NCBI GenBank assembly: GCA_964549685.1
Contig: CAZJVE010000002.1
Coordinates: 5,246-69,245, forward strand
Length of the DNA stretch: 64,000 nucleotides
Reading direction: 5' to 3'
Origin: an uncultured archaeon
GTDB taxonomy: Archaea; Altiarchaeota; Altiarchaeia; IMC4; QMZM01
Below, in pieces: positions 27,003 to 64,000 of the stretch. The notes below the pieces were generated by a model. That model had not been told where the DNA came from. It saw nothing but the letters and a program-made list of their open reading frames with translations, and searched no databases. Every line of letters starts with the position of its first letter. The first letter of the stretch is position 1. The position numbers were made by a program, and so were the translations under genes.

Positions 27003-27148
27003 TACTTATTCGTTCAAGAGGTTTTTATACCTATCTGTTCAGTAGACGGGAAGACGACAGCCGGAATTCCTCCGCATTCCACCGGGGAATTCAAGGTGCA
27101 CTCGGCCCGCAGGCCGACGTGCGCCAAATGATCAAACTTTTTTAAGTT

Positions 27149-27231
27149 TGCGGGGGACGAGGTTCGAACTCGCGTAGACCTGCGCCACTAGGTCCTAAGC
27201 CTAGCCCCTTTGACCACTCGGGCACCCCCGC
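27149..27231 (-). tRNA. tRNA-Leu (anticodon UAG)
   Basis: A cloverleaf can be drawn by hand. The acceptor stem is GCGGGGG/CCCCCGC, the anticodon stem-loop is CUAGG-CUUAGGA-CCUAG, there is a long class II variable arm, and the T-loop is GUUCGAAC. No CCA is encoded. A TATA-like CTATATAG lies ~27-33 nt upstream. Confidence 0.95.
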
Positions 27232-27293
27232 AAATGAAAGGGATGAACTATTAGGTACTATATAGGATGGCTACAGAAATAAATGCGCCCTCA

Positions 27294-47000: not shown

Positions 47001-47815
47001 CCCTTTATCGCCTTTTCATAGGCCTCGTGCGTTCCCGTATCGAACCACTGCCCCTTGAACCTGTAGCCGCAGAGCTGACCCTCCCTCGCAAGCCTTGGAA
47101 AAACACCCTTCTCCATCATCGAGCGCCCCTCGGGGACGTAGTCGATGACCTTGGGCTCCAGGAGATAGACCCCTGCGTTTATGAACTTCGAGGGCTCCTT
47201 ACCTTTTTCCGGCTTTTCTATGAACTCAAGAATCTTATCGCCCTCAAGCTTCGCGACCCCGAACCTGGATGGCTCATCCACCGCCGTCAGAGCAATCGTG
47301 GCAAGGCACTTGTTCTTCCTGTGAAAGTGAATCATCTCATGGAGGTCTATGTTTGCAAGCACATCACCATTAAACATGAAGAAGGACCTGTCCGGCCTCT
47401 CCTCCAGGAGGTTGAGCGAACCGGCTGTTCCAAGCTCTTCCTCCTCGACAATGTATCTTATATTCACACCGAGATTTGTGCCGTTGCCTAGTCCAGACTG
47501 TATCCTGTCGCCCATGTAGCCGATGGACATGACAATGTTCGTTATGTGGTGCTTCCTCAGCAGTTCGATTGTGTGCTGAACGAGGGGCTTTTCATGCACC
47601 GGAATCAGTGGCTTGGGAATCTCATAGGTGAAGGGCCGCATCCTTGTCCCTTTGCCTCCGGCAAGAATCAGTGCCATGTCCACTCTGCTGGAAGCCAGCG
47701 CCTTGGAAAGCAGGAAATTCACGGCATCGGAGCGATTCTTTATCCTGTCATCATCGATGAATTCGTCAACGTCCTCCAGAATCTCTTCATCTATGCTTAT
47801 AGACTTCTCACCCAT
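46982..47815 (-). CDS. sugar-1-phosphate nucleotidyltransferase fused to an N-terminal ribbon-helix-helix (CopG-like) domain
   Basis: The N-terminus KSISIDEEILEDVDEFIDDDRIKNRSDAVNFLLSKAL follows the RHH pattern. It is followed by LILAGGKGTRMRPFTYEIPKPLIPV, the NTP-transferase signature. Confidence 0.85.
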   Translation of the reverse strand: MGEKSISIDEEILEDVDEFIDDDRIKNRSDAVNFLLSKALASSRVDMALILAGGKGTRMRPFTYEIPKPLIPVHEKPLVQHTIELLRKHHITNIVMSIGYMGDRIQSGLGNGTNLGVNIRYIVEEEELGTAGSLNLLEERPDRSFFMFNGDVLANIDLHEMIHFHRKNKCLATIALTAVDEPSRFGVAKLEGDKILEFIEKPEKGKEPSKFINAGVYLLEPKVIDYVPEGRSMMEKGVFPRLAREGQLCGYRFKGQWFDTGTHEAYEKAIKGWKDIE

Positions 47816-47865
47816 TTTGAATATATTGGTTGGAATATTTATATCTACTTTTATAATTAAGTTAC

Positions 47866-50262: not shown

Positions 50263-51166
50263 GACACTACTACTCGTGCTGATTATCGCACTGGCCGGGA
50301 TTTCATCAGCAAGGTACATATCCATATCCACCACCTCGACAGCCGAAAGAATCACCGAGGGAGACAGTACAGTTATCGGCGCCAGGCTCGTCAACTCTGG
50401 AGACGAGGCAGCGCACGACGTAAGGGTATCCCTCATGCTGCCGGAGGGCTTCAGCGCGAACGAACTGAAGCCCGGACAGATGGAGCCAGATGAGCCCTAT
50501 GAAGGGGATTTTACCGTCAGCATAGATAGTGACGTTACCCCCGGGACCTACCTCGTCGCAATCCTTACCGACTACCGGGACGCGAACGCATACCCCTTCT
50601 CCTCGATAACCCAGAGTTTCATCAACCTCGGCGAGGAGACATTTTCCGACATATCCGGGACCCTGTCGAAAATCAGCATTAGCCCGGAAGGCTCCGCATC
50701 AACAACGCTCACGATAAGGAACAGAGGAGATGAAAAGCGCAGGCTGAGGGTCAGGCTGTTCCTCCCGAGGGAGCTTGAGGCAGACGTTGAAAGCTATGAG
50801 CTGGAACTGGGGCCGAGGGCTCAGGAAGAGCACCGATTCAAAATATCCTCCTTCGGAGCCCTTGCCGGAAGCACCTATATAATCTCTGCATCAATAGAAT
50901 ATGAGGAAGACAACCTCCACTACACCTCAACTGCGTCAGGGGTGGTGGAGATAGTAACCGAGGAGGAGGTACCTGTGGGAGAGGAGAGCGGGCCAGGCAT
51001 CTTCGACAGGCTGGACATGACGCTCTTGCTCCTGATAGGCAGCTTTATCCTGCTGCTCGTAATATTCGCAGCATTGTCGATGAAAAGCAAAAATGAAAAA
51101 CAAGGAAAAGATATCGGTGATAATCCCGACGCTGAACGAGGAGAAGAACCTCCCGAAGGTCCTTGA
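50255..51166 (+). CDS. secreted CARDB/COG1361-like beta-sandwich protein with C-terminal TM anchor
   Basis: Has a signal peptide and two beta-rich units of the type found in archaeal S-layer-domain proteins (FTVSIDSDVTPGTYLV, LTIRNRGDEKRRLRV). The C-terminal TM helix is LLLLIGSFILLLVIFAAL. Confidence 0.5.
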   Translation: MNKTLLLVLIIALAGISSARYISISTTSTAERITEGDSTVIGARLVNSGDEAAHDVRVSLMLPEGFSANELKPGQMEPDEPYEGDFTVSIDSDVTPGTYLVAILTDYRDANAYPFSSITQSFINLGEETFSDISGTLSKISISPEGSASTTLTIRNRGDEKRRLRVRLFLPRELEADVESYELELGPRAQEEHRFKISSFGALAGSTYIISASIEYEEDNLHYTSTASGVVEIVTEEEVPVGEESGPGIFDRLDMTLLLLIGSFILLLVIFAALSMKSKNEKQGKDIGDNPDAERGEEPPEGP

Positions 51167-51764
51167 GAAGCTCCCCGGCTACGTCGATGAGGTAGTCATA
51201 GTCGACGGGCATTCCAAGGACAAGACAGTAGCGGTTGCCAAGAAATTCGGAGCCAGGGTGGTCTACGACGATGTCGGCAAAGGCTCCGCGCTCCGCGTAG
51301 GGATGAAGGAGGTAACGGGCGACATAATCATAATGATGGACGCCGACTGTTCACATATCCCAAGCGAGATAGGCCTTCTCGTTGCCGGGATACAGTCCGG
51401 CTTTGACATCTGCATGGGCTCCAGGTTCCTACAGGGCGGGGGAACGGAGGACATGACCCTGCTCCGGAAATTCGGCAACAAGTTCTTCGTCTTCCTGGTG
51501 AACCGGCTCTGGGGCATGAACTACTCTGATTTATGCTACGGCTATCGCTCCCTGAGGAAGGACAGCATCGATAAACTGGAACTGGAATCCGACGGTTTCG
51601 GTGTTGAAACGGAACTATCCATAAAAGCGGCAAAGAAGAAACTTAGAGTCCTTGAAGTCCCGAGCTACGAAAAGGCAAGGGCATCCGGCGAAGGGAAACT
51701 CAGAACCTTCCACGACGGCCGGCTTATCCTGGGAAGAATCCTGACCGAGCTGTTAAGGAGATAG
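51093..51764 (+). CDS. family 2 glycosyltransferase, polyprenol/dolichol-phosphate sugar synthase-like (Dpm1/Ppm1 type)
   Basis: Contains ISVIIPTLNEEKNL...VVIVDGHSKDKT...MMDADCSH (the DxD region). It is a 223-aa soluble-type enzyme. Confidence 0.85.
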   Translation: MKNKEKISVIIPTLNEEKNLPKVLEKLPGYVDEVVIVDGHSKDKTVAVAKKFGARVVYDDVGKGSALRVGMKEVTGDIIIMMDADCSHIPSEIGLLVAGIQSGFDICMGSRFLQGGGTEDMTLLRKFGNKFFVFLVNRLWGMNYSDLCYGYRSLRKDSIDKLELESDGFGVETELSIKAAKKKLRVLEVPSYEKARASGEGKLRTFHDGRLILGRILTELLRR

Positions 51765-51765
51765 T

Positions 51766-52635
51766 CTATCTGCCCCTCACGACCAGGTCCGCGAGCAGGC
51801 CAAACAGCACAACCTGCACTGACGCCACCATCAGTATGACGGTAGTCACGTCCATGAACCTGTCCATGAAGATGCTGGAGTACAGGAACACGGATATCCC
51901 CGCAAGGAACAGCGCCAATCCAATGGGTAAAAAAATCTTCAGCGGGTTGAAGTACATGATGGTCCTGATAATCAGAACAATGAACCTGGACCCGTCCCGG
52001 AACGGCCTTATCTTGCTCTTCCCCTTCCTCTTGTGATAGTCTATCGGGACATACTTCACTGTATAATTGTTGCTTATATATGCAAGGGTTATCGTGGTCG
52101 TGAACGAGAACCCGGAGGAAATCAGGTTGAACAGCCCCATGACCTCTTTCTTTCTGAAAACCCTCAGCCCGGAATTCAAATCCGGAATTTTCACCCCTGA
52201 CAGATAGTTCGCCAGCCCGGACAGGAACCACTTTGCGGGCTTTCTGTACGCCTGTATCTTTACGTCCTTCCCAGTCCTTGCGCCCACCACCATGTCATAC
52301 TCATCGATGTGCTTCAGGAGCTTGGGAATGTCCCCAGCGGGATACGTGCCATCGGCATCGGCAATCAGAACCCACTCGCCACTGGCATGCTTTATCCCAT
52401 TCTTCAAAGAGGCCCCGTATCCCTGGTTGAAGGAATGGACGACCACCTCTATGCCGTCTATCCCCCTTAAGACCTCCAGGCTTTTGTCATCGCTTCCGTC
52501 GTCTATGGCTATTATCTCATAGCCATGCCCGGACTTGTCCATGACCCCTTTAATATCCTTGATAGTCGAGCGCACCAGGTCCTCTTCATTAAAGACCGGA
52601 ATCAGTATGGATATATCCACGCTATTCTTTTTCAT
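51766..52635 (-). CDS. family 2 glycosyltransferase with two C-terminal TM helices (GtrB/ArnC/DPM1-like polyprenol-phosphate glycosyltransferase)
   Basis: Contains ISILIPVFNEE...IIAIDDGSDD...IADADGTYP. The two TM helices at the C-terminus match the GtrB/ArnC family architecture. Confidence 0.85.
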   Translation of the reverse strand: MKKNSVDISILIPVFNEEDLVRSTIKDIKGVMDKSGHGYEIIAIDDGSDDKSLEVLRGIDGIEVVVHSFNQGYGASLKNGIKHASGEWVLIADADGTYPAGDIPKLLKHIDEYDMVVGARTGKDVKIQAYRKPAKWFLSGLANYLSGVKIPDLNSGLRVFRKKEVMGLFNLISSGFSFTTTITLAYISNNYTVKYVPIDYHKRKGKSKIRPFRDGSRFIVLIIRTIMYFNPLKIFLPIGLALFLAGISVFLYSSIFMDRFMDVTTVILMVASVQVVLFGLLADLVVRGR

Positions 52636-52638
52636 TGC

Positions 52639-53331
52639 CTATAGCCTCCTTAGACTCGCCACAATCCTGTGTTTCAGGACCGGCGGAACGCGTTTTACCT
52701 CAATGACATCAAAGTACCCCTTACTAATCCGTTCCAGGAAAGGAACGCTCCCCTCGTGGAGGTGCCACTCGTAGTCTTCCTGTTTCCTGGCGGCATGGAG
52801 GATTCTTGAAAGCCCGATCTTTTTGATTATGGACATTATCTTCTTAATCCTCAGTTCGTCGGGTATGCTCACCACAAGTAAGCCCTTGGGATTCAGCAAC
52901 GAATAGACGTTTTTCATGACCTTTTCAGGCTTGGGCACGTGCTCCAGCATCTCCGAGCACAGAATCTTGTCGAACTTTTCGTCCATCTTCAGGTTCTGGG
53001 CGTCACCGAACTGCACCCTGGCATCAATACCGCGTTCATCAATAAGCTCCTTCGCCCTCTTTAAAGCTACTCTGGATATGTCGACGCCGACTATCTTTTT
53101 GGCCTTGGGAAGCATGGTAAGGCAATAGCCCTCGCCGCAGCCGAGGTCAAGGACCGAATCATCCTCTGAAATTTTCGCCATGTTCACGATAGTTTTCAAT
53201 CGCAACAGCTCAACCAATCTCAGCAGAAAATTCTTGCTCTCAAACAACGTCCCTTCTCCATGATATTTCCTGACCATGTCATCGTTCCATTGAGACAGTT
53301 CATCCGTGGATGATTCCTTGGAAATTACCAT
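52639..53331 (-). CDS. class I SAM-dependent methyltransferase
   Basis: Motif I is VLDLGCGEGY. The post-I acidic residue is VGVDIS, and the motif II region is ILCSEMLEH. Confidence 0.85.
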   Translation of the reverse strand: MVISKESSTDELSQWNDDMVRKYHGEGTLFESKNFLLRLVELLRLKTIVNMAKISEDDSVLDLGCGEGYCLTMLPKAKKIVGVDISRVALKRAKELIDERGIDARVQFGDAQNLKMDEKFDKILCSEMLEHVPKPEKVMKNVYSLLNPKGLLVVSIPDELRIKKIMSIIKKIGLSRILHAARKQEDYEWHLHEGSVPFLERISKGYFDVIEVKRVPPVLKHRIVASLRRL

Positions 53332-54734
53332 TTCAAGTGCTCAATTGCAAGGTTAATTAGGTGGGCAAAGTCATTAACGTTCTTTACCTCCCTCAGGACG
53401 TTTACTGATGCCTTGGGCCTCAGGTAGAACGAGAGATAGGCACTCCTTACCCCTGCCATAATCTCCCTTGAAGACAGCTGCGGATAGCTCACCGCCGAGG
53501 TCCCGCCCTGGTTTATGCACTCCCACCGCTCTGCCGACAGCCAGCCGTTTTTTACGCACTGCTCATAGAATTTGGTGCCGGGATACGGCGAGGCCACGTG
53601 GAATATGGCAAAGGTAATGGGCAGCTTCTTTGCAAAATCAATCGTCTCCTTCATCGTTTCCTTCGTCTCTCCCTTAAGCCCGAGGATGAAATAGCCATAG
53701 ACCTTTATCTTTGCCTCCTTAGCCCACCTCACAGCATCGACCGCCTGCTCAAGAGTGGCCTCCTTCTCACAGTCCTTGAGAATCTTTGCAGAGCCGCTTT
53801 CGATGCCGTAGGCAATCATCCAGCACCCCGCCTTTTTCATCCACCCGAGCATCTCCTCATCCACGGTATCGACGCGGGAGTTGCAGCCCCAGGACATGCC
53901 CAGCTTCTGCTCTATCATGAGCTTGCAGAGCCTGATGACCCAGTCCTTGTGAACGGTAAACGTGTCCGAGTGGAATATGAAACTGTTAACGCCCATCCCC
54001 TTCAGCATAACCAGCTCCTTCATGACATTCTCGGGAGAGCGCATCCTTACCTTCTTCTGCCACATTATCGGCTGCCTGCAATAGGTGCAGGAATACGGGC
54101 AACCTCTGCTTGACACCACGAACGTAAACCTGGAGGCGATGAACGGAAACACGTACTTGTCTATCGGCAGGAGGTCCTGCCTTGCGATGGGCAGCTCGTC
54201 AAGGTTGTCCAGAAACGGCCTTGGCTTATTGATTACTGTCTTCTTGCCATCCCTGTACGCCAGGCCCTTTATCTTCGAAAGCTCCTTTTTATCCTCCAGG
54301 GCATGAATCAGCTCCTTGAATGTAAGCTCCGGCTCACCTATCATGATATAGTCCAGCTCCGGACAATCCTTGAAGGACTCCTCTACCAGCTCCGTCACGT
54401 GAGGGCCCATGCAAATCGTCTTGGTCCCGGTGATTCTCTTTGCCTCCGTGAACGCCCTGAAGTCGTTCGTAGACACAGATGTAATCACATGCGAGGCCAT
54501 GTACCTCGGCCTTTCCTTCTCCAGAACCCCTATAAAATCCTCCCAGTCGAATTTCTCGGCAATGCAGTCAACAATCTTTACGCTCATATCCTCTGGAAGC
54601 ATCGCGGCCATATAAGCCAGATTCGTCTGCGGCCATATAATCTTCTCCTTACTCGTTCTCCCGGACCTGTTAAAGTCCCGGATGATTATGGACTTGTCCG
54701 GCGAGGGGGGATTCACTAACAGAACGTCAACCAT
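53325..54734 (-). CDS. B12-binding-domain radical SAM enzyme (class B)
   Basis: An N-terminal cobalamin-binding-like Rossmann segment is followed by SSRGCPYSCTYC (CxxxCxxC). Confidence 0.88.
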   Translation of the reverse strand: MVDVLLVNPPSPDKSIIIRDFNRSGRTSKEKIIWPQTNLAYMAAMLPEDMSVKIVDCIAEKFDWEDFIGVLEKERPRYMASHVITSVSTNDFRAFTEAKRITGTKTICMGPHVTELVEESFKDCPELDYIMIGEPELTFKELIHALEDKKELSKIKGLAYRDGKKTVINKPRPFLDNLDELPIARQDLLPIDKYVFPFIASRFTFVVSSRGCPYSCTYCRQPIMWQKKVRMRSPENVMKELVMLKGMGVNSFIFHSDTFTVHKDWVIRLCKLMIEQKLGMSWGCNSRVDTVDEEMLGWMKKAGCWMIAYGIESGSAKILKDCEKEATLEQAVDAVRWAKEAKIKVYGYFILGLKGETKETMKETIDFAKKLPITFAIFHVASPYPGTKFYEQCVKNGWLSAERWECINQGGTSAVSYPQLSSREIMAGVRSAYLSFYLRPKASVNVLREVKNVNDFAHLINLAIEHLKW

Positions 54735-54792
54735 CTTTAGAATATTTATTATCTACTGAGAGTTAAAATAAAAGGCCAGCCTCTTAATATCT

Positions 54793-56490
54793 TTGATAAT
54801 GAAAAAACCGTACAGGCTTCTTGGAGTGAGGGCCGAGGTCTGGCTCATTCTCATCCTCTTTTTCGCCCTGTTCATCAGGATGTATTTCTTTGTGGGATTT
54901 GTCAACAACGACCCGCAGGATGACGGCATCTACATAAGCAAGGCAAAAGAGCTTGCTCTTGGCGGAGAATTCTCGGATTTCAAATGGGCTGCTGACCTGG
55001 TATCAAGGGAGGATACAATCAACCCTGCTCATCAGTTCCTTTTCAGGTGGATGATGATATTCCCCGTTATGGCGTCCTTTATGCTCTTTGGATTCAGCGA
55101 TTTTAGCGCAGTCCTCTTCCCCCTGCTATGCTCCCTTGGCAGCGTTGTGCTCATATTCTACATGGGGAAAAACCTGTTCAATGAAAAGGCGGGTCTCATC
55201 GCCGCGTTTCTCCTTTCCTTCTTTCCGCTGAACGTCATCTATTCCACCCGGATAACGCCGGAGATACCGCTCGCGTTCTTCATGGCCCTGTCCGTTTTCA
55301 TGTTCCTTCTTGGCGAGCAAAGAAAAGGAGACCGGGTATTTCTCAATCTAAAGAACCTGTACTTTCTGCTGTCGGGCGTTTTTCTTGGCGTCGGATATCT
55401 CGTAAAGGAGTCCGCAATAATACTCCTGCCATTCTTCATCGCCTATGTCCTGTACCGGAGAGGAATCCGCAAGGAGTACCTGCTCATCTTTATTGGCTTC
55501 CTTGCAATCTTTTCCATCGAGGGCCTCTATTACTATGACAATACCGGGGATTTCTTCCTGCGCCCCCATCTGAATTCAAAGGTCGCGGCCTTCAAGTACG
55601 AGGTGGAGCTTGAGAGGCTACTCAAATCCGAAAATGTCTATGGCATGGTAGAGGTAATCTACGTGTCCAACCCCGACCTGTACCCAAAGCTATTGCTGAA
55701 CCAGAAGCCCCACTGGAGGTCAAAGATAAACGAAAGCTTTGGGTACTTCTACTACTTCGTTTTACTGTCCCTGGCCGCCCTCACCTGGTACCGGTTCCGG
55801 GGCAAGTGCCCCAAAAAGGCGCACATACCGGTACTCTGGGCGCTGTCCCTGTTCCTGTTCCTCGAATTCGGGCCGATGGGGTTTAAACTCAATTCCGCCA
55901 ACGCATGGCTTGAATACCGCGTAATAGTCAAGAGCCTTAGGTACCTGACGATGCTGACTATTCCCTCTTTGCTCATCATCGCATCGTTTCTCAGCATCGA
56001 CACCAAGAAAATCAAATTCCTTATCCTGCCTCTCACCCTTATAATCCTGCTTGCAAGCTCGATTCCCATAATGGGAACCGTTCACACAGACTTCGTATCT
56101 CGCATAGAGGGCATCAGGGAGGCATCCGACTTCCTCAAGGCCCACCCCGGGGTAAGAGTATATTCCGACTTCCTTGGCGTCGGGTTTATGAGATACTACA
56201 CCGGCTATACCGGAAACTATACGTTTAAAGGCTTTGGTTACCCTAAATACTCTCCATCCTTCACCATAGACAAGATTAAAAACGACTCGTTCGTCGTGGT
56301 CGGGGGCTCCAGGGGCTCCGTGGGGTGCAAGGGCGTAGTTAGACGCATGTCTCCCCCCTTCGCCTCTGACCCGCCCGAAAGCTGGGTTCTCATGAGGGAT
56401 ATCCCAAGCAGGGTCGAATTATGCCGTAAAAATAAATGGAATCTAAAGATATACTACGTACCATCACAAGATGAAACTGATACTGCTTAA
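54793..56490 (+). CDS. GT-C fold glycosyltransferase, PMT_2/ArnT (GT39/GT83-like) family
   Basis: About 12 TM helices. The first extracytoplasmic loop carries the acidic motif NNDPQDDGIYISKAKE, as in PMT/ArnT (DE/DD motif). A soluble C-terminal domain follows. Confidence 0.75.
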   Translation: MIMKKPYRLLGVRAEVWLILILFFALFIRMYFFVGFVNNDPQDDGIYISKAKELALGGEFSDFKWAADLVSREDTINPAHQFLFRWMMIFPVMASFMLFGFSDFSAVLFPLLCSLGSVVLIFYMGKNLFNEKAGLIAAFLLSFFPLNVIYSTRITPEIPLAFFMALSVFMFLLGEQRKGDRVFLNLKNLYFLLSGVFLGVGYLVKESAIILLPFFIAYVLYRRGIRKEYLLIFIGFLAIFSIEGLYYYDNTGDFFLRPHLNSKVAAFKYEVELERLLKSENVYGMVEVIYVSNPDLYPKLLLNQKPHWRSKINESFGYFYYFVLLSLAALTWYRFRGKCPKKAHIPVLWALSLFLFLEFGPMGFKLNSANAWLEYRVIVKSLRYLTMLTIPSLLIIASFLSIDTKKIKFLILPLTLIILLASSIPIMGTVHTDFVSRIEGIREASDFLKAHPGVRVYSDFLGVGFMRYYTGYTGNYTFKGFGYPKYSPSFTIDKIKNDSFVVVGGSRGSVGCKGVVRRMSPPFASDPPESWVLMRDIPSRVELCRKNKWNLKIYYVPSQDETDTA

Positions 56491-57832
56491 CCCTCCCGCG
56501 AAGGAGAAGTACGTGAAGGAATCGAGATGTCAGCACAGGGCAGCCGTATTCCAGTCAGTCTATCCCCCCATGACTCTGGCGTACATAGCATCCCTGACAA
56601 GAAACGAGAACGACGTCCTCCTCATCGACGCAATCGGTGACGGAATCTCCGAGAGGGACGTAATCCACACGGTCCAGGAATTCGACCCCGATTTGATTAT
56701 TGTTAACACGACAACCCCCACCATAAACAATGACCTTGAGGTGATTCGCAGACTGAAGAAGGTCTCCCGATTCAAGTCCGCGATGTTCGGAGTCCATGCG
56801 ACCCACTTCGCAAAGGAACTCATCAAAATGCCGCAGCTCGATATAGTGATCCGGGGCGAGCCCGAAATCACCTCCTATGAGCTTACAAGGAAAGACCTCA
56901 AGGACGTTGAGGGAATAATCTACAAGGAAGGCAACAAGGTCAGAGAGAACCACGGCCGCAAGCCCCTGGACGTCAATGCCCTGTCCTTCCCGGCCTGGGA
57001 CCTCGTCAACCTGGGCAACTACAGGATGCCCATTATCGCCGAGAGCTACGTACTCCTGGCTACGGGAAGGGGCTGCCCCTACGACTGCTCCTTCTGCGTC
57101 TCGACCTCCTACTACGGCAAGAAGTTCAGGTGCAGGGAGGTGGACTCAGTTATAAAAGAAATTCACTATGCCAAGTCCATGGGAATTAAAAATTTTTTCT
57201 TCTTTGTTGAAACCTTCACATTAAATAAAAAATTCGTCCTCGAGCTCTGTGACAGAATCATCGATGAAAAGCTGGACATCCGCTGGGTCTGCAACTCAAG
57301 AGTCGATACGGTAACCCAGGAGATGTTCGACAGCATGAGGAGGGCGGGCTGCTGGCTCATCTCCTTCGGCATAGAGAGCAGCAGCCAGAAGGTCCTCGAC
57401 AACGTCAAGAAGGGAATAAAGCCCGAGCAGTCCAAAAAGGCGGTAAAGATGGCCCACCGCGCAGGCATCGCAACAATCGGCCATTTCGTCTTTGGCCTGC
57501 CCGGCGAGACGGAAGACTCGATAAAAAAGACCATAAGATTCGCCCGGGGAATTCCCCTGAACTTCGCCGAATTTTATATTGCGACTCCGTTCCCCGGCTC
57601 CGACCTCTTCAGCGAAATGGATGGCAGGAATTATGCCGAAATCAATTGGGATGAATTCGAATATTCTCATCAGAATCTATGCAAGGAACTGAATCTCGAG
57701 AAATACAGAAAGAAGGCATACATGCAGTTCTACCTCAGGCCGTGGCTAATCCTCCGGGACTTGCGAATCTTCGGCCTGAGCAACCTGCCGAAGCTCATCA
57801 TCGGCGGCATCAGGTTCCTGACGACCATCTGA
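56471..57832 (+). CDS. B12-binding-domain radical SAM enzyme (class B), paralog of 53325..54734
   Basis: Carries TGRGCPYDCSFC and has the same architecture and length as its paralog. Confidence 0.88.
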   Translation: MKLILLNPPAKEKYVKESRCQHRAAVFQSVYPPMTLAYIASLTRNENDVLLIDAIGDGISERDVIHTVQEFDPDLIIVNTTTPTINNDLEVIRRLKKVSRFKSAMFGVHATHFAKELIKMPQLDIVIRGEPEITSYELTRKDLKDVEGIIYKEGNKVRENHGRKPLDVNALSFPAWDLVNLGNYRMPIIAESYVLLATGRGCPYDCSFCVSTSYYGKKFRCREVDSVIKEIHYAKSMGIKNFFFFVETFTLNKKFVLELCDRIIDEKLDIRWVCNSRVDTVTQEMFDSMRRAGCWLISFGIESSSQKVLDNVKKGIKPEQSKKAVKMAHRAGIATIGHFVFGLPGETEDSIKKTIRFARGIPLNFAEFYIATPFPGSDLFSEMDGRNYAEINWDEFEYSHQNLCKELNLEKYRKKAYMQFYLRPWLILRDLRIFGLSNLPKLIIGGIRFLTTI

Positions 57833-57836
57833 CAAA

Positions 57837-58067
57837 ATGAGAAAATCAGAATCCATTAAAGGCCTGCAGAGCCTGTGCAACATAGGCCCCAAAACGGCAG
57901 AGAGGCTTTACTCACTCGGCATCAAAACGCCCGAGCAGATGAGGAAATCAGACCCTGAGAAGCTGTACGAAAGACTAAGAAACAAAGAGGGTGGCAGGCT
58001 GGACCGGTGCGTCCTCTATCAGTTCCAGGGAGCAGTCCGTGATGTCCCCTGGTGGGAATGCAAGTGA
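57837..58067 (+). CDS. small helix-hairpin-helix protein (Cdd1/McrB-like HhH)
   Basis: LQSLCNIGPKTAERLYSLGIKTPEQM is an HhH motif. Size is 76 aa. Confidence 0.5.
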   Translation: MRKSESIKGLQSLCNIGPKTAERLYSLGIKTPEQMRKSDPEKLYERLRNKEGGRLDRCVLYQFQGAVRDVPWWECK

Positions 58068-58074
58068 TATAAAT

Positions 58075-59307
58075 TCAACCCCTGATTATCTTAACGCTCT
58101 TTATCCCCTGGGGAGTAACCCTGTCAACCTCGATTGTAACCTTCCCCAGCTTTATCTTTTCTCCCTCCTCCGGAATTCTCTGGAGCCGGTGCTCGATAAA
58201 GCCCGCAAGCGTATTGAAGTGCTCTCCCTTGAGCCCCAGGTGAAGCACCCTGTTAATCTCCTCGATCGACACCCTCGCATCCACCCTGATTAGGTTGTCG
58301 CTTACCTTTTTGATGTGGACGCTCTCCCTCCTGCTCTTGTCGAAGATGTCCCCGACTATCTCCTCAAGCACGTCCTCAATCGTTACCAGTCCGGAGACGT
58401 CGCCGTATTCGTTAACAACAATGGCCATCGGGACATCCCTACCCTCGAACTCTGAAAGAAGGTCATCAATCCTCTTGGACTCCGGGACGAAATATACCTC
58501 CCTCACAATACCCTTTATCTTAACATTCACCTTGTCGTCCTTGACGTGTTTCAGGACATCGTCAACATCAAGCACGCCAATTATCTTGTCCTCGTTTCCT
58601 TCATAAACTGGATACCTGGAATAGGGCATCTTAACAATGAAATCGATGACGTCCTTCAGTTTTGCCTCGGAGTCAATCGTTTTCATCTTCGTCTTCGGCG
58701 TCATAATCTGTGTAACCCTCGTATCCTCGAACTCCAGTAGATTGCGCATCATCTCGGCCGCCTCCCGGTTCAGTATCCCCTCCTTGACGCCCATCGTAAC
58801 CATAATTTCCAGCTCCTCTTCCGAGAGTTGCTTTTGTTCCCTTGAGCCAAGCAGCCTCGAGGTGCCCTTGGATATCGCCTCAAAGGACCTGACAATCGGT
58901 GACAGGATATACGACAACAATTCGATGGGCCATGCAACCAGCAGAGATATACTCTCGGCATTCTGGCTTGCAAACGTCTTCGGCGTTATTTCACCAAAAA
59001 TCAGGATTAAAAAGGCCATAACCCCCGTCGCAATCCCCAAACCGCTTGAGCCGAACAAGCCGGTAAAGATTACTGTCGCAAGCGATGCCGCTGCGACATT
59101 GGCCAGGGTATTCCCTATAAGTATTGTTATTATAAGCCTGTGAGGGTTCTGCTTAAGTCGATAAAGGGAATCGGAGCCCCACTTTTCCTGCTTGACCAGG
59201 GACTTGACCTTTATCATACTGACCGATATCACGGCAATCTCGACCCCCGAAAAAAACGCGGACAGCCCAATCAAGAAGAACAGGGCCAGTATCTGAATCT
59301 CCAGCAT
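58075..59307 (-). CDS. CNNM/DUF21-CBS-CorC_HlyC family transporter-associated protein (hemolysin-family)
   Basis: Four N-terminal TM helices (DUF21), a CBS pair, and a C-terminal CorC/HlyC domain (LAGFIEHRLQRIPEEGEKI). Confidence 0.9.
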   Translation of the reverse strand: MLEIQILALFFLIGLSAFFSGVEIAVISVSMIKVKSLVKQEKWGSDSLYRLKQNPHRLIITILIGNTLANVAAASLATVIFTGLFGSSGLGIATGVMAFLILIFGEITPKTFASQNAESISLLVAWPIELLSYILSPIVRSFEAISKGTSRLLGSREQKQLSEEELEIMVTMGVKEGILNREAAEMMRNLLEFEDTRVTQIMTPKTKMKTIDSEAKLKDVIDFIVKMPYSRYPVYEGNEDKIIGVLDVDDVLKHVKDDKVNVKIKGIVREVYFVPESKRIDDLLSEFEGRDVPMAIVVNEYGDVSGLVTIEDVLEEIVGDIFDKSRRESVHIKKVSDNLIRVDARVSIEEINRVLHLGLKGEHFNTLAGFIEHRLQRIPEEGEKIKLGKVTIEVDRVTPQGIKSVKIIRG

Positions 59308-59385
59308 TTGAATACCTCGTACCTATTAACTATATCACCTCCATATAATAAAATTTAAACCCCCAATCGCAATCCTTACTCTAAA

Positions 59386-61083
59386 ATGTACGTTCTCGGC
59401 ATATGGGACGGTCACGACGCCGGCGCTGCGATAGTCAAGGACAACAAGATTCTCGTGGCAGTCAATGAAGAGAGGTTCACGAAGAAGAAGCTGGACATCG
59501 GCTTCCCTGAGAATTCCGTGAAGGAGTGCCTGAGATTCACGAACCTGAAGCCCACTCACATCCAGAAAATAGCCGTCACAACCACTGATTTTGCAAAGAC
59601 CCTAACCCGGCTAGTTCCGGGCATGAAGGAGAAGTACTACCTCTTCCGGAGGAGGAAGGTCTCCAAGCCGTCCCTGGACGAATCCAGGAGGCACTTCAAA
59701 TACACAACAACGGAGATAAAGGAGCTCCCCCTCTGCAGGAAGCTGAGCAACATCTACTTCAAGGGCCACCTGAACAGCATTGGCTTCAAGGACTATGAGA
59801 TTCACTGGGTGGACCACCACGCTGCCCATGCGGCAGCTGCCTCCATCTGCAGCGGCTTCGACAAGGCCCTCGCCATAACCCTGGACGGAGTAGGAGACGC
59901 CCTCTCAGGCACGGTGAACATCTTTGAGGAGGGCGAGATAAAGAGAATATCATCCATCCCCGCGAGGGACTCCTTTGGAATCTTCTACGAGCAGATAACC
60001 ACCCTTCTTGGCATGAGAGAGCTTGAAGATGAAGGAAAGGTCATGGCCCTCGCGGACTTCGCCTATAAAGTACCCGACGAAGAAAACAAGCTCATAGACT
60101 TCTTCGAGGTCGACGGCCTCCAGGTAAAATGCAAATACTCGACCATAGGGAAATACTCCCGGCTTAAGAAGATTCTCTGGAACACCCCCCGCGAGGAGCT
60201 GGCCTTCATGGCCCAGCGGACTATAGAAAAGCACATAACCCAGCTCTTCACAAACGCAATCGAGGAAACAGGGATAAAGAACGTCTGCTGGTCTGGGGGA
60301 ATAGCCTCCAACATCAAGGTCAATCTCAAGGTAAGGCAGGAATCAGGGATGAAGGACTGGTTCGTCTTCCCGCACATGGGCGACGGCGGCCTTGCCGCTG
60401 GCGCTGCCCTCTACCTTTCATTGCAGGAGACCGGGAAGCCCGCCAGGAGGCTCGAGAACGCCTACCTCGGCAACGAATTCTCCAATGAACAGATAGAGGA
60501 ATCCCTCAGGAAATACAAGGATAAGATAAGATTCGAATACAGGGAGGACATAGCAAAATACTCCGGCGAATACCTTGCTGACGGAAATTTCATGCTATGG
60601 TACCAGGGCAGAATGGAGTTCGGCCCAAGAGCCCTGGGCAACCGCTCCATAATCGCCCCCGCATCTCCCATAGAAATCAAGGACAAGCTGAACCTCCAGA
60701 TAAAGAAACGCTCCTGGTTCCAGCCTTTCTGTCCCTCTCTCCTGGAGGAGCATGCCAAGAAGATATTCTCCGACGCAGATTCATACGACCGTCTCATGAC
60801 CATGGGCTACTGGACAAGGCCCGAAATAAGGGACAAGGTCATCTCCGTAATCAACGTTGATGGCTCTGCAAGGCCGCAGATGCTGGGCGACGAGAACCCC
60901 CGGTTCAGACAGCTCCTGAAAACCGTAGCCAAGAAGACCGGCCTCGGTGTCATCCTGAACACCAGCTTCAACCTGCACGGCTATCCGATAGTGTGCACTC
61001 CTGAAGATGCCGTTGACATGATGCTGAATTCAAAGGCCCCTACAATGGCCGTCGGCAACTTCCTGATAGAGCTTAAGAAGTAA
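59386..61083 (+). CDS. carbamoyltransferase (NodU/CmcH family)
   Basis: The N-terminus MYVLGIWDGHDAGAAIVKDNKILVAVNEERFTKKK is typical of the family. Also present are NTSFNLHGYPIV and a length of 565 aa. Confidence 0.9.
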   Translation: MYVLGIWDGHDAGAAIVKDNKILVAVNEERFTKKKLDIGFPENSVKECLRFTNLKPTHIQKIAVTTTDFAKTLTRLVPGMKEKYYLFRRRKVSKPSLDESRRHFKYTTTEIKELPLCRKLSNIYFKGHLNSIGFKDYEIHWVDHHAAHAAAASICSGFDKALAITLDGVGDALSGTVNIFEEGEIKRISSIPARDSFGIFYEQITTLLGMRELEDEGKVMALADFAYKVPDEENKLIDFFEVDGLQVKCKYSTIGKYSRLKKILWNTPREELAFMAQRTIEKHITQLFTNAIEETGIKNVCWSGGIASNIKVNLKVRQESGMKDWFVFPHMGDGGLAAGAALYLSLQETGKPARRLENAYLGNEFSNEQIEESLRKYKDKIRFEYREDIAKYSGEYLADGNFMLWYQGRMEFGPRALGNRSIIAPASPIEIKDKLNLQIKKRSWFQPFCPSLLEEHAKKIFSDADSYDRLMTMGYWTRPEIRDKVISVINVDGSARPQMLGDENPRFRQLLKTVAKKTGLGVILNTSFNLHGYPIVCTPEDAVDMMLNSKAPTMAVGNFLIELKK

Positions 61084-61084
61084 A

Positions 61085-62920
61085 ATGCGTTTTAAACCAG
61101 GCAAAATCCTGACGGGAATCCTGCCCCCGATAATAGCCGTAAACGTCTTCGCAATCATCGCATACCTGGTTCTAAACTATAAAGACATCGGCATAACCTC
61201 TGCCAAACTCATGGAAATCCTGCCCTGCTTCTTCCTGGTGAATTTCATACTCATCCTGCTTCTCCTTGCGCTAAACGCCGGGAGATTCAGCCAGGAATTC
61301 AAGGGCATTAGCAACAGGACCTGGTTCCTGCTGATAGCTATAGTAATCCTGGGGTTCTTCCTTAGAGAGTTCGTCGTTGACCACACGCACAGGATATTCT
61401 TCGACGAGGACCTCTACTCTGGCATAGGGAACTCCATGGCCCGGGAATTCAGGGCCATAATGTGCAACTACGGAACGCCGACAGAATGCAGGGAGGGAAT
61501 CCTCAACAAGGACCCCTCCGGATGGCCGTTCCTCCTTACGGTATTCTACTGGCTCCTCGGCTCCGCAGAAAAGATTGCCTTCGTCATCTCCGTACTTATC
61601 GCAACCATCTCCATAGCCCTTGTCTTCCTGGTAGTCTACATGCTCAGCAGGAACGAGACTGCAGGGCTCTATGCCTCGCTCCTATTCGCCCTTACCCCCG
61701 CCCATCTCATATGGTCCGGTTCTATTGCTACTGAGGTCCCGTTCGCATTCTTCTCCCTCCTGACAATCCTCGTATATCTCCTCTATTTCGAGAGCCACTC
61801 CCTGAAAGCCCACCTTCTCGGAGCAGTACTCCTTGCATATACTGTGCAAATAAGGCCCGAGGGCCTGATATTCATAGGCGCCATTGCCCTGATGTTCCTG
61901 CTCTTCGAGAGTAAACCCCTCAAAAAACTGTCCAGCTGGAGATTCTGGCTCCCCTGGATTTTACTCTTTGTCCTTCTCACCCCCCACCTCATGCAGATGT
62001 ACTCGAACCGGGGAGGCAGCTGGGGCGCCCCCTCAGGAGAGAAGCTGGGCTGGAAATACGTCGACGGAAACCTCACAAAGAACACGCTCTTCTGGTACAG
62101 CGGCGAGATGCATCCCCTGTTCTTCACGTTCCTTGCCATTCTTGGAGCAGTCTACCTCCTCAGGGAGAAGAAGAACCTCCTGTTCAACCTCGTCTGGTTC
62201 TCCATCTTCTTTGTCCTGTTCGTATTCTTCTATGCTGGCAGTGTAGACAACGGCGGCATTGGCTTCAGGTTCGTCAACCTCTACTGTGCCCCTGTTGCAA
62301 TCCTCGGCGGCTACGGCGCATTCATGCTGCACAAAATCCTTTCAAAGGGCCTTAGGTCCAAGAAGATAGCCACCGTCCTAATCATAGCCCTCATCTCAGT
62401 CTCATTCCTCTTCCTGTCCAATTTCCCGTACAAAAGCCTCGTCGATATGCTCGGCGACCCAAAGCCGGGAGTCAGGCACTTCCTTACGAATGAGAATCAA
62501 TATCCTCCCGTAAAAGGCCCGATGAATCTGACCTACTCGAGAGTAGTCTCCTTCATCCTTACCCCCGACAAGCAGGCCCAGTACGCAAGGGACATGCACG
62601 ACATCCTCGTCATGCCCAACATGAACAAAATCGGCGACGACTGCTGGGTGATGACTCATAACCCCAGCATTTTCCTGGTTGAGGGTAAGAATTCCATGCA
62701 GGCCTGGTTCGGAACAAATGACAAGGTAATGAACCGGCTCTTCAACGAAACCAACTGCGTCATGTGGCTCGAGGGCGCATGGTGCGTCGTCTCGAAGCAG
62801 CACAGGGAAGGCACGTGCAAGAATATGCACAACAGATATAACCTCACGGTCATCGACAGCTATACACGGCCCGAAAACACAAAGCAGGTCTTCAATCTGT
62901 ACATGGTGAACAGAAAGTAG
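61085..62920 (+). CDS. GT-C fold glycosyltransferase, PMT_2/ArnT-like, second copy
   Basis: Multi-TM protein whose first-loop acidic motif is RIFFDEDLYSG. A soluble C-terminal domain follows. Its start is 1 nt after the carbamoyltransferase stop. Confidence 0.7.
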   Translation: MRFKPGKILTGILPPIIAVNVFAIIAYLVLNYKDIGITSAKLMEILPCFFLVNFILILLLLALNAGRFSQEFKGISNRTWFLLIAIVILGFFLREFVVDHTHRIFFDEDLYSGIGNSMAREFRAIMCNYGTPTECREGILNKDPSGWPFLLTVFYWLLGSAEKIAFVISVLIATISIALVFLVVYMLSRNETAGLYASLLFALTPAHLIWSGSIATEVPFAFFSLLTILVYLLYFESHSLKAHLLGAVLLAYTVQIRPEGLIFIGAIALMFLLFESKPLKKLSSWRFWLPWILLFVLLTPHLMQMYSNRGGSWGAPSGEKLGWKYVDGNLTKNTLFWYSGEMHPLFFTFLAILGAVYLLREKKNLLFNLVWFSIFFVLFVFFYAGSVDNGGIGFRFVNLYCAPVAILGGYGAFMLHKILSKGLRSKKIATVLIIALISVSFLFLSNFPYKSLVDMLGDPKPGVRHFLTNENQYPPVKGPMNLTYSRVVSFILTPDKQAQYARDMHDILVMPNMNKIGDDCWVMTHNPSIFLVEGKNSMQAWFGTNDKVMNRLFNETNCVMWLEGAWCVVSKQHREGTCKNMHNRYNLTVIDSYTRPENTKQVFNLYMVNRK

Positions 62921-64000
62921 ACAGGACGTGTCCTGCCCTCTTCTCCAGCATATCTATGACCTCCTCATTACTCTCTCCTTCTGCAAATATGCTACATACC
63001 GGCTCATGGGCCCGGATTACCGAACCGTCGGGAGGAATATCCGCAACATCCGTCGCATTGGAAAGATTTACCCTGACCCTCCCCCCCGCAAAAACAATCC
63101 CCTTCCCGAAGCACTTATCAGAAGCGAATTCTATTCTTTCTAAATTTCCATTAATCGCATTGATGTGCTTTTCCACCAGATTAATATTCCTGTACCTCTC
63201 GACGCACTCCATGGTGTCCTGAAGCCTCGGGTTTACCTCCATGAAGTACAGTCTATCGCCTGACATGATATAATCTATCCCATTGGAACCAACCAGCCCC
63301 GCCCTCGATATTATCCTCTCCGAAACCCTGGCAATCTCATCATTCATCCCCGAATCCAATGGCACAAGATTCCCGCAGTATGTAAATTCCTTCATCACGT
63401 TGAATTCCTTCACTCCAATAAGCTGCCTGTTCACCGATATAGCCCGGGAATTCTCCCCGTCGCAGAGAACGGACGAGCTCACCGGTATCCCCGCCACATA
63501 TTCCTGCAGCAGCAGCTCCACCCCCTTCTCAAAGGCCCACGACATCCTCTCAACATCCTCTCCCCCTCTGAGAAGATGCTGCCCCACTCCACCCCCTTCG
63601 TAGGGCGACTTCAGGACAGCGGGAAAACCAATCCTCTCCACGGCCCTCTCCAGCTCATCAACCGAACCAACGACAACAGTCTCGGGGAATTCCGCCTCAC
63701 TCTTGGACAGTATCCTCTCCAGGCTCCCCCACCCCTTGACCCTCTCAACAGCCTTAGAACCATTCCCCAGAATCTCAAACTCCCTCTCCAGCTTTCTGAG
63801 AAGGTGTGCATTGCACCCCATTGCCGATGTCGGAATCACCGAATCCACCAGCCCTGAGAGCTTCTCAATGGCAAAATCAACCAGCGCCCCGGCGGAATAC
63901 TCCCCTCCCAAATCAGGCTTCAGGGGATTCCGCTGCATGGAGAATACCCTCCCTCCCAGGTCAGTATCCGGGTAATAGCCCGCAAGACAGACCTCAAGCC
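62892..64000 (-). CDS. ATP-grasp family ligase (COG2232-like carboligase); N-terminus probably beyond window edge
   Basis: ATP-grasp motifs VLKSPYEGGGVGQ, LLQEYVAG and YFMEVNPRLQD are present. The minus-strand frame stays open upstream of the ATG at 63938 through position 64000, so the true start may lie outside the window. Confidence 0.65.
   Translation of the reverse strand, partial: LEVCLAGYYPDTDLGGRVFSMQRNPLKPDLGGEYSAGALVDFAIEKLSGLVDSVIPTSAMGCNAHLLRKLEREFEILGNGSKAVERVKGWGSLERILSKSEAEFPETVVVGSVDELERAVERIGFPAVLKSPYEGGGVGQHLLRGGEDVERMSWAFEKGVELLLQEYVAGIPVSSSVLCDGENSRAISVNRQLIGVKEFNVMKEFTYCGNLVPLDSGMNDEIARVSERIISRAGLVGSNGIDYIMSGDRLYFMEVNPRLQDTMECVERYRNINLVEKHINAINGNLERIEFASDKCFGKGIVFAGGRVRVNLSNATDVADIPPDGSVIRAHEPVCSIFAEGESNEEVIDMLEKRAGHVLSTFCSPCTD

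Follow-up and report, generated by a model that had tools for sequence, protein, structure and literature searches.

A mosaic gene island of an Altiarchaeota genome, putatively for extracytoplasmic glycosylation with tailored, lipid-linked sugars

Described lipid-carrier systems and the Altiarchaeal island

In the known three-component glycosylation systems (GtrA/GtrB/GtrC; ArnC/ArnD/ArnE-F/ArnT; CsbB/GtcA/YfhO and the GT136 system) a family 2 glycosyltransferase (GT2) or another synthase loads a sugar onto polyprenyl phosphate, and a membrane transferase of the GT-C fold transfers it outside. The same scheme is recognizable in a gene island towards the end of the 64,000-nucleotide stretch analyzed here (the window; contig C2:5246-69245), which belongs to an Altiarchaeota genome of 1.17 Mb and 85% completeness; the closest homologs of the window proteins are named Candidatus Altiarchaeales or Altiarchaeota. 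On the grounds of sequence, predicted structure and gene context, which make up the whole analysis, we consider it reasonably probable that two or more cassettes, horizontally shared and accessory to the genome, are combined here into an island for extracytoplasmic glycosylation from lipid-phosphate-linked, tailored sugars, the acceptor of which we infer. The original prediction had proposed the logic of a GT2 synthase and a GT-C transferase accompanied by tailoring enzymes, and this logic holds.

In the Arn pathway, the lipid-linked sugar is edited between loading and transfer. A system composed of a polyprenyl-phosphoribose synthase, a MATE protein and a GT136 enzyme includes an auxiliary epimerase, and its lipid-linked sugar, a pentofuranose, is likewise diversified before the GT-C transfer (PMC11127046). 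The island differs from the three-component systems in its archaeal host, in lacking a flippase gene, in GT-C families that are distinct from ArnT, GtrC, YfhO and GT136, and in its editors, which are radical S-adenosylmethionine enzymes (rSAMs) of the B12-type (SPASM-type in some relatives), a carbamoyltransferase and a methyltransferase. In our literature search, none of these editors was described for any three-component system. No homologs of ArnA, ArnB or ArnD of the ArnT/GT83 lipid A system are present in the island and, to our knowledge, archaea have no lipid A.

In streptococci, GtrB and a GT-C enzyme (PgtC2) glycosylate Ser/Thr-rich regions (PMC12041528). This system and Pgf (PgfS/PgfE/PgfM1/PgfM2; PMC12041528, PMC5856776) resemble the island in combining a GtrB-type GT2 with one or two GT-Cs, and their targets are extracytoplasmic Ser/Thr-rich regions of membrane-associated or secreted proteins, the genes of which can adjoin the cluster. 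By analogy, they may be regarded as the closest functional counterpart for an O-glycosylating role of the island. They contain, however, neither a radical SAM enzyme nor a carbamoyltransferase, the PgfS scores of the island are at the family level only (51-81 bits versus the cut-off of 500), and the link of the island to Thr-rich proteins is one of gene neighborhood, which fails genome-wide in Altiarchaeales. In Haloferax volcanii, AglD/AglR/AglS add the terminal mannose of the N-linked pentasaccharide outside the cell, using dolichyl-phosphate mannose. This is an archaeal precedent for a Dpm1-like GT2 working with a PMT-like GT-C on the outer face, and AglJ is the best curated family of one of the two GT2 enzymes of the island; the Haloferax pathway, however, operates without tailoring enzymes, and the island proteins score below the equivalog cut-offs and are not linked to AglB.

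Two further comparisons concern the editors. HpnI/HpnJ/HpnK, which act on the hopanoid head group, pair a GT2 with a class B rSAM editing a lipid-bound sugar, as the island appears to do, but the island is without a deacetylase and without hopanoids, and ring contraction would be incompatible with a transfer by GT-C. TobZ, NodU, NovN and GdmN have the same architecture of Kae1-like and YrdC-like halves as the island carbamoyltransferase (CarbT) and carbamoylate hydroxyls, which are on sugars in three of the four cases, whereas CarbT is coupled to a GT-C membrane transferase and not to an antibiotic or Nod-factor pathway.

Enzymes of loading, transfer and tailoring

Genes were called from an open reading frame (ORF) listing combined with Pfam and NCBIfam, by which every gene of the original inventory (two GT2, two GT-C, two B12-type rSAMs, a methyltransferase, a carbamoyltransferase and an ATP-grasp protein) was recovered; no NCBIfam equivalog was assigned to any of the island proteins scanned. 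GT2a (51093-51764, plus strand) is a soluble, Dpm1-like protein of 223 amino acids (AAs) that consists of the catalytic domain only (Glycos_transf_2, 101 bits) and has no predicted transmembrane (TM) helix. Its best solved relative is the dolichol-phosphate-mannose synthase PfDPMS of Pyrococcus (PDB code: 5mlz; E 1.7e-27), followed by ArnC (1.5e-12), and its best curated families are AglJ (158 bits versus a cut-off of 325) and dolichyl-phosphate hexose transferase, both below cut-off. GT2b (51766-52635, minus strand; 289 AAs) is of the GtrB/ArnC type according to Pfam and TM prediction, and matches ArnC (9.4e-17) and GtrB sll0501 over the full length, its two C-terminal TM helices included. 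Both enzymes belong to the GT2 polyprenyl-phosphate glycosyltransferases characteristic of three-component systems, and the earlier description of two Dpm1/GtrB-type proteins, the second with two C-terminal TM helices, was correct.

GT-C1 (54793-56490, plus strand) is a membrane glycosyltransferase of the PMT_2/PMT families, above the cut-offs of both (PMT_2 71 bits; PMT, PF02366, 40.8 bits with a cut-off of 22.7 bits), and is composed of about 11 TM helices and a C-terminal extracytoplasmic domain. Its listed start is the TTG at 54793, and an ATG stands two codons on, at 54799; since the protein is deposited with a length of 563 AAs, the ATG is the likelier start. GT-C2 (61085-62920, plus strand) has the GT-C fold and represents a family of its own, with 810 clusters at 50% identity (E<=1e-30); it is above the cut-off of PMT_2 only (35 bits; PMT 16.2 bits) and ends in a Cys-containing domain on the outside. 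The acidic first-loop motifs that had been ascribed to the two proteins were both found, with key residues that are conserved in the respective families. NNDPQDDGIY occupies residues 38-47 of GT-C1, with D43 nearly invariant and Y47 invariant in the family alignment, while FFDEDLY occupies residues 105-111 of GT-C2 within a loop of the pattern R-x3-D-E-x2-Y; R103, D107, E108, Y111, Q255, R257, E259 and C578 are invariant among 17 orthologs. GT-C2 and its bacterial orthologs carry two extra N-terminal TM helices (residues 1-100, 61085-61390) ahead of the helix that precedes the catalytic loop, therefore the acidic motif follows TM3 and not TM1. Provided that the N-terminus lies inside, as in the predicted topology, the motif would face outward in both proteins, after TM1 in GT-C1 and after TM3 in GT-C2.

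Because a sequence search of both GT-Cs against PDB chains yielded no match, a fold search was needed. The AlphaFold2 models are confident (pLDDT 87 and pTM 0.90 for GT-C1; pLDDT 82 and pTM 0.86 for GT-C2), and Foldseek assigned a probability of 1.00 to their matches with ArnT, AglB, STT3, PglB and ALG9/12. The top match of GT-C1 is ArnT (PDB code: 5ezm; TM-score 0.52, 12% identity), then ALG12, ALG9 and AglB, while GT-C2 matches AglB, STT3, PglB and ArnT with TM-scores of 0.42-0.50. Both models thus show the GT-C fold and, in a loop outside the cytoplasm, an acidic motif, as the transferases of three-component systems do. Of the likeness to PMT and ArnT named in the original prediction, the PMT side is not borne out by the fold: for both GT-Cs, Pmt1, Pmt2 and Pmt4 (TM-scores of 0.27-0.39) rank below ArnT, ALG9/12, AglB, STT3 and PglB (0.42-0.55). 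The class of the acceptor was not discriminated by the fold search, as all GT-C-A structures fall between 0.3 and 0.55 at 10-16% identity.

The putative tailoring enzymes are two rSAMs, a methyltransferase and CarbT. rSAM1 (53325-54734, minus strand) and rSAM2 (56471-57832, plus strand) are paralogs of 33% identity, each with an N-terminal B12-binding domain and a radical SAM core (PF02310 and PF04055, both above cut-offs), and with the CxxxCxxC motifs CPYSCTYC at residue 212 and CPYDCSFC at residue 202 in the two proteins, which makes them class B enzymes and candidates for cobalamin binding. The methyltransferase (52639-53331, minus strand) is a class I SAM-dependent enzyme (Methyltransf_31/23/25/11). 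CarbT (59386-61083, plus strand) is an O-carbamoyltransferase of the TobZ/NodU/NovN/GdmN type, with both its Kae1-like and YrdC-like halves above the Pfam cut-offs (Carbam_trans_N 134 bits, Carbam_trans_C 180 bits) and PDB matches to GdmN, NovN and TobZ with E values from 1e-64 to 1e-55; it does not belong to the NodU equivalog, however (122 bits versus a cut-off of 1000). This set of domains agrees with the proposal of two paralogous class B (B12) rSAMs, a class I methyltransferase and a NodU-type carbamoyltransferase.

The best NCBIfam family of both rSAMs is HpnJ (TIGR03471), with 272 bits for rSAM1 and 224 bits for rSAM2; these scores are under half of the cut-off of 577.6 and neither protein is a member of the equivalog. 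The ladderane-lipid and hopanoid-methylase rSAM families score even lower against both, and a role in core-lipid synthesis of the glycerol dialkyl glycerol tetraether (GDGT) or ladderane type was rejected on account of the low scores against the curated lipid rSAM families. The nearest solved structures of rSAM2 are AprD4 (PDB code: 6fd2) and the glutamine C-methyltransferase of methyl-coenzyme M reductase (PDB code: 9ccb); AprD4 is a sugar diol dehydratase without bound cobalamin (PMC12931638). We rejected a ring contraction of the HpnJ type, which would be expected to destroy the donor for the later glycosyl transfer, and C-methylation or deoxygenation is a more likely rSAM step.

These results bear on the possibility of a membrane glycolipid or lipoglycan as acceptor, in the style of ArnT or PimE, so that glycosidic archaeol head groups would be decorated and the rSAMs might even act on the lipid. 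The best fold match of GT-C1 is an argument for it, as is the best score of both rSAMs against an editor of a lipid-bound sugar; and most Altiarchaeum lipids are glycosidic archaeols that carry one to three glucose units (PMC13003381). The HpnJ scores are nevertheless far below the cut-off and those of the other lipid families lower still, a contracted ring on a phosphate-linked sugar would abolish the donor activity, and hexose head groups bearing carbamoyl or methyl groups are not mentioned in the consulted passages of the lipid study (PMC13003381). Moreover, no single lipid acceptor fits, because the cassette is present in diderm bacteria, in monoderm bacteria of the candidate phyla radiation and in DPANN archaea. 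We consider a lipid acceptor very unlikely.

Two genes upstream of GT2a, a phosphohexomutase and a sugar nucleotidyltransferase, were found as had been stated. The phosphoglucomutase/phosphomannomutase gene (45639-47000, minus strand) encodes all four PGM_PMM domains; it is a possible supplier of sugar precursors, and only its proximity ties it to the island. The sugar-1-phosphate nucleotidyltransferase (46982-47815, minus strand; NTP_transferase, 163 bits, residues 48-271) has mannose-1-phosphate guanylyltransferase and an archaeal GlmU-type family as its best NCBIfam families, both below cut-off. An N-terminal extension of about 45 AAs precedes its NTP_transferase domain, which begins at residue 48. 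The gene is kept in another genome of the same genus (G002; 79% identity), where it is also divergent from the operon, and an NTP-transferase gene flanks the GT2b ortholog in a Micrarchaeota locus (L078).

We propose that the phosphohexomutase and the nucleotidyltransferase, as their families suggest, would supply a nucleoside diphosphate (NDP)-hexose, the sugar of which GT2a, or GT2b in an inserted cassette, would load on dolichyl or polyprenyl phosphate at the inner face of the membrane, as expected for members of their family. The sugar would then be tailored in the cytoplasm, by rSAM2 and CarbT in the core cassette and by rSAM1 and the SAM methyltransferase in the inserted one. The fixed gene order, the translational coupling and a fusion of an rSAM to a GT2 (see below) point to this tailoring step. 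After being flipped by a protein encoded outside the island, the lipid-linked sugar would be transferred to an acceptor at the outer face by GT-C1 and GT-C2, consistently with their fold and outward acidic motif. Since CarbT and GT-C2 form a near-obligate pair, GT-C2 most likely transfers the carbamoylated sugar, while GT-C1, encoded between GT2a and rSAM2, may use an untailored intermediate; a second sugar, this one methylated, would come from the inserted cassette.

Mosaic structure and distribution of the cassettes

The contigs of relatives were compared with the island proteins by tblastn. The core order NEW3 (a NEW3/CARDB-type membrane protein), GT2a, GT-C1, rSAM2, CarbT and GT-C2 is complete in G002, and GT2a, GT-C1, rSAM2, CarbT and GT-C2 follow each other in a genome of another family of the same order (G023). 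G024 (locus L024) holds rSAM2, CarbT and GT-C2 in the same order, with an incomplete GT-C1 at the contig end, while G005, G006 and G031 hold parts of the core. In G002, GT-C1 stands directly after GT2a and CarbT directly after rSAM2, and GT2b is absent from the locus, from which it follows that the GT2b-methyltransferase-rSAM1 block and the CNNM gene are insertions in the present genome. The island is accessory: CarbT orthologs (at least 60% identity) occur in 11 and GT-C1 orthologs in 10 of the 41 Altiarchaeales genomes compared.

The inserted block is a second cassette, which is orthologous in Micrarchaeota and Saccharibacteria by sequence comparison. In the rSAM tree (111 sequences, FastTree, Shimodaira-Hasegawa-like support), rSAM1 groups with the Saccharibacteria (L066) and Micrarchaeota (L078) sequences with a support of 100, orthologs of GT2b (231-262 bits) adjoin the rSAM1 orthologs in these same two loci, and a methyltransferase adjoins rSAM1-clade genes in L066, L078, L057, L075 and L073. 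rSAM2 falls in an Altiarchaeal clade (98) inside a 13-row clade (100) that includes Aminicenantes loci with GT2 and GT-C neighbors; its full-length orthologs of 41-46% identity are found in Aminicenantes, Omnitrophota and Aenigmatarchaeota. In six related loci (L022, L045, L065, L088, L090 and L100) of Omnitrophota, LCP-89, Planctomycetales and Woesearchaeota, three to six paralogous genes for class B rSAMs follow each other beside GT2 and methyltransferase genes.

Outside Altiarchaeales, two sets of loci were compared: 80 genome loci retrieved by an rSAM2 profile, 59 of them with enough flank, and an independent set of 80 metagenome loci chosen by similarity to GT-C2. A GT2 of about 225 AAs lies at most 300 nt from the rSAM in 31 of the 59 genome loci, and the complete GT2-rSAM-CarbT-GT-C2 cassette, often with overlapping genes, is found in nine of them, the carriers being Acidobacteriota, Thermodesulfobacteriota, Nitrospirota (Magnetominusculus), metagenome-assembled genomes (MAGs) labeled Myxococcota, and others. 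In a Pirellulaceae MAG (L081:10001-12148, CAYUFW010000063.1), a single protein of 716 AAs unites the B12-binding, Radical_SAM and GT2 domains, and a PMT_2 GT-C gene comes next and overlaps with its gene; the fusion places rSAM and GT2 in one pathway. Among the metagenome loci, CarbT is directly upstream of GT-C2 in 40/44, whereas a class B rSAM is nearby in 13/25 and a GT2 in 18/25, therefore CarbT and GT-C2 constitute the invariant core. The adjacency of the carbamoyltransferase to the second GT-C, already claimed for the window, is that of an upstream gene with a 1-nt gap. Relatives of GT-C1 stand in arrays of GT2, a SPASM-type rSAM, GT-C1, CarbT and GT-C2, sometimes followed by LPG_synthase_TM (Saganbacteria and metagenomes). 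The island is thus a mosaic of at least two mobile, horizontally shared cassettes that are not archaeal-specific. Our literature search found no paper that describes a cassette of GT2, class B rSAM, carbamoyltransferase and GT-C, and the cassettes shared with many bacteria are apparently undescribed.

Several neighboring genes remain to be placed. A gene for a protein with an FG-GAP propeller, a TPR-like part and a single TM helix with a charged tail (47866-50262, plus strand; Pfam and TM prediction) overlaps the NEW3 gene by 8 nt, which in turn overlaps GT2a by 74 nt; the three form one transcription unit, with the FG-GAP/TPR gene first and GT2a third. The FG-GAP/TPR protein is kept only within the genus (57% identity in G002). 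Downstream, the rSAM2 gene overlaps GT-C1 by 20 nt. The CNNM/CorC-type divalent-cation transporter gene (58075-59307, minus strand; CNNM, CBS and CorC_HlyC domains) is missing between rSAM2 and CarbT in G002, G023 and G024; it was ruled out as a cassette member and is an unrelated insertion interrupting the island. The ATP-grasp gene (62892-64000, minus strand, running about 64 nt past the window end; ATP-grasp_3, 88 bits; 390 AAs at full length) converges on GT-C2, with which it shares 29 nt. It had been counted among the tailoring genes, but no homolog exists on the cassette contig of G002 or in the other cassette loci, so that it was ruled out as a cassette member and even its place in the island is doubtful. 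Past the window end (L011:2339-5554) follow a class I methyltransferase (212 AAs), a NosD-like Thr-rich protein and the housekeeping genes RibD_C and PolD. Elsewhere in the window, an archaeal RNase P RNA (12621-12891; 91 bits) and a tRNA-Leu (27148-27232) are encoded, both on the minus strand.

The acceptor and what the cassettes may mean

Ser/Thr-rich linkers or tails of secreted proteins are our leading hypothesis for the acceptor of the CarbT/GT-C2 pair. In the neighborhood tests, an ORF was taken as Thr-rich if it had a run of at least 10 Ser/Thr residues within the fetched flanks. Among bacterial genome loci, a Thr-rich ORF neighbors six of 14 full cassettes versus three of 46 other loci (Fisher p=0.003), and two of these three "others" are in fact cassettes that a contig end truncates. 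In the metagenome loci, 10 Thr-rich ORFs lie at most 3 kb from the cassette (244 kb) versus one farther away (264 kb; binomial p=0.004), and p is 0.015 once a duplicate locus and the ORFs inside the cassette are removed. The Thr-rich neighbors are secreted proteins, one group of which combines a FecR-like domain and a coiled coil with a Thr-rich tail, and in an Acidobacteriota MAG three tandem lipoproteins with Thr linkers come directly after GT-C2.

The window itself encodes four secreted Thr-rich proteins (1157-1927, 9134-11863, 31558-33054 and 43239-45647), as had been noted; each begins with a signal or lipobox sequence and contains Ser/Thr runs 8-31 residues long. Their presence is uninformative, however, because Thr-rich runs occur in 35 ORFs on many contigs of the present genome, about 3% of the proteome. 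The NosD-like neighbor beyond the window end, 1.9 kb past GT-C2, is a secreted beta-helix protein of 838 AAs with a Thr/Ser run of 24 residues.

Several observations weigh against our reading of the island. As for the donor side, GT2a has no TM helix, so that a lipid acceptor is suggested for it only by its likeness to DPMS and ArnC, and no flippase gene (GtrA, ArnE/F, MATE or Wzx) is present between 45.6 and 64 kb or in the 5 kb that follow. We infer the donor sugar and the order of tailoring (on the nucleotide sugar or on the lipid-linked sugar) as well as the acceptor. On the acceptor side, the cassette (11/41) does not track poly-Thr coding (39/41) in the Altiarchaeales genomes; the median density of poly-Thr is 52 matches per Mb in genomes with the cassette versus 133 in those without it (Mann-Whitney p=0.01); and G002, with its full core cassette, has poly-Thr at the level of the reversed-pattern control (nine matches versus 18), and its cassette contig (C82, 27.7 kb) is free of Thr-rich ORFs. 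A Thr-rich neighbor is present in only about 20-45% of the cassette loci, which are phylogenetically non-independent, several Syntrophales loci sharing one neighbor family. Furthermore, a GT2-rSAM-methyltransferase-PMT_2 module of a Nanohalarchaeota MAG (L075) has AglB and a GPT-type initiating enzyme as neighbors, and this suggests N-glycan decoration there. In favor of our reading, LPG_synthase_TM, a candidate flippase, is found beside related cassettes (L066, L105 and L106) and beside other GT2/GT-C genes of the present genome.

The co-occurrence of the cassette with Thr-rich proteins across genomes, on which the original prediction had staked its O-glycosylation reading, thus turned out negative, with a lower poly-Thr density where the cassette is present. 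Of the O-glycosylation island that it envisaged, the logic of GT2, GT-C and tailoring enzymes stands, and so does the position of CarbT/GT-C2 next to Thr-rich secreted proteins in bacteria and metagenomes, but not the genome-level link in Altiarchaeales. In its strong form, the idea equates the island with the protein O-glycosylation machinery of archaea, serving the many poly-Thr/Ser linkers of secreted proteins in the lineage. In favor of it, the logic of GT2 and GT-C is present, the island is flanked by Thr-rich proteins on both sides (43239-45647 and the NosD-like protein), the cassette is enriched beside Thr-rich proteins in bacteria, and, in line with the earlier claim, the enzymes of archaeal O-glycosylation have been wanting: the pathway was called "still elusive" in 2021 (PMC8241124) and the O-glycosyl transferase "currently elusive" in 2024 (PMC11607397). 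Against this, the association across genomes is negative, G002 carries the cassette without poly-Thr, chance would already account for the co-location in the window, and five further PMT_2 genes of the genome could equally serve. Two of the latter, with a second GT2 (47729-48439), form a cluster (contig C8:45138-56003) beside an FG-GAP protein with a Ser/Thr run; two more Thr-rich secreted proteins are encoded nearby, while rSAM and carbamoyltransferase genes are lacking, and this cluster is a rival candidate for O-glycosylation within this genome. The strong form therefore seems quite unlikely to us: because the cassette shows no positive correlation with poly-Thr and G002 is almost without poly-Thr, we regard the cassette as an accessory, strain-variable decoration and not as general archaeal O-glycosylation machinery.

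Related loci bring in a glycan as the acceptor, so that GT-Cs would place terminal tailored sugars on N-glycans, as AglD/AglS do in Haloferax, or on a surface polysaccharide, as in Gtr and other three-component systems. In L075 (L075:3051-12125), AglB (STT3) and a GPT-type Glycos_transf_4 share one row with a tailoring module that directly adjoins these core genes of N-glycosylation, namely a PMT_2 GT-C, an 8-TM protein, a GT2, a class B rSAM and a methyltransferase. The present genome also has AglB, albeit on another contig, the best curated families of GT2a are AglJ and dolichyl-phosphate hexose transferase (below cut-off), and the folds of the GT-Cs are closer to ALG9, ALG12, AglB and ArnT than to PMT. 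In bacteria, lipopolysaccharide (LPS)-core GT9 genes adjoin the relatives in Aminicenantes and Omnitrophota, a Wzy_C/TPR protein accompanies related loci, and the domain family to which NEW3 belongs is known as a neighbor of carbohydrate-binding modules. A glycan acceptor would, however, leave the enrichment of Thr-rich neighbors unexplained, and no Wzx, Wzy or ABC glycan export genes are present within the island; we judge it unlikely, though it should be kept in view. We conclude that the module that makes the donor is general; the acceptor may differ between GT-C families.

The NEW3/CARDB-type protein (50255-51166, plus strand; NPCBM_assoc, E 2e-8) has a signal peptide, two beta-sandwich domains and a C-terminal TM anchor. 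Its orthologs are directly upstream of GT2a in G002, G005, G006 and G031. According to a hidden Markov model (HMM) of the family, members stand beside cassettes in L063, L104, L105, L072 and L061 (bacteria and metagenomes) and in seven of the 80 metagenome loci; the family also recurs in L115, L159 and L162. The hosts include Saganbacteria, Syntrophales and Desulfobacteraceae (the last a row of the training set). NEW3 is thus a recurrent partner of the cassette and a candidate acceptor, adaptor or glycan binder. If it were itself the dedicated acceptor, the cassette would accomplish a domain-specific glycosylation of a folded beta-sandwich, resembling that by TMTC/TMEM260 on cadherin/IPT domains in animals; TMEM260 is reported to be a protein-specific O-mannosyltransferase (PMC10214176). 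The overlap of its gene with GT2a, in a position kept across Altiarchaeales, and the adjoining family members in Saganbacteria, Desulfobacteraceae, Syntrophales and several metagenome loci accord with such a role. The partner is present, however, in only a minority of the cassette loci, a role as adaptor or as glycan-binding subunit would suit it equally well, and a conserved Ser/Thr site was not established, hence we hold NEW3 as the dedicated acceptor to be very improbable.

Returning to the favored reading of an island for extracytoplasmic glycosylation with tailored sugars, we put forward tentatively a more specific version, which is possible but rather less than probable: CarbT and GT-C2, together with a GT2 and an interchangeable rSAM, would be an undescribed protein O-glycosylation system of bacteria and archaea that places a carbamoylated, rSAM-edited sugar on Thr-rich linkers and tails of secreted proteins, with NEW3 as the substrate-presenting adaptor. 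If this were true, the cassettes would be a testable candidate for the O-glycosylation of archaeal Thr-rich linkers, and the Altiarchaeal island would be the first genetic handle on any archaeal O-glycosyltransferase.

The scheme itself is that of the known three-component systems; the widespread tailoring chemistry seems undescribed. Should our interpretation be right, the scheme of a lipid carrier and a GT-C gains a layer, consisting of rSAM chemistry and carbamoylation on the carried sugar, in hundreds of lineages, and this chemistry would still be new if the acceptor is a glycan or a lipid. It would also mean that bacteria and archaea exchange ready-made modules of surface decoration, which would bear on antigenic variation, on the evasion of viruses and on the protection of disordered linkers from proteases.

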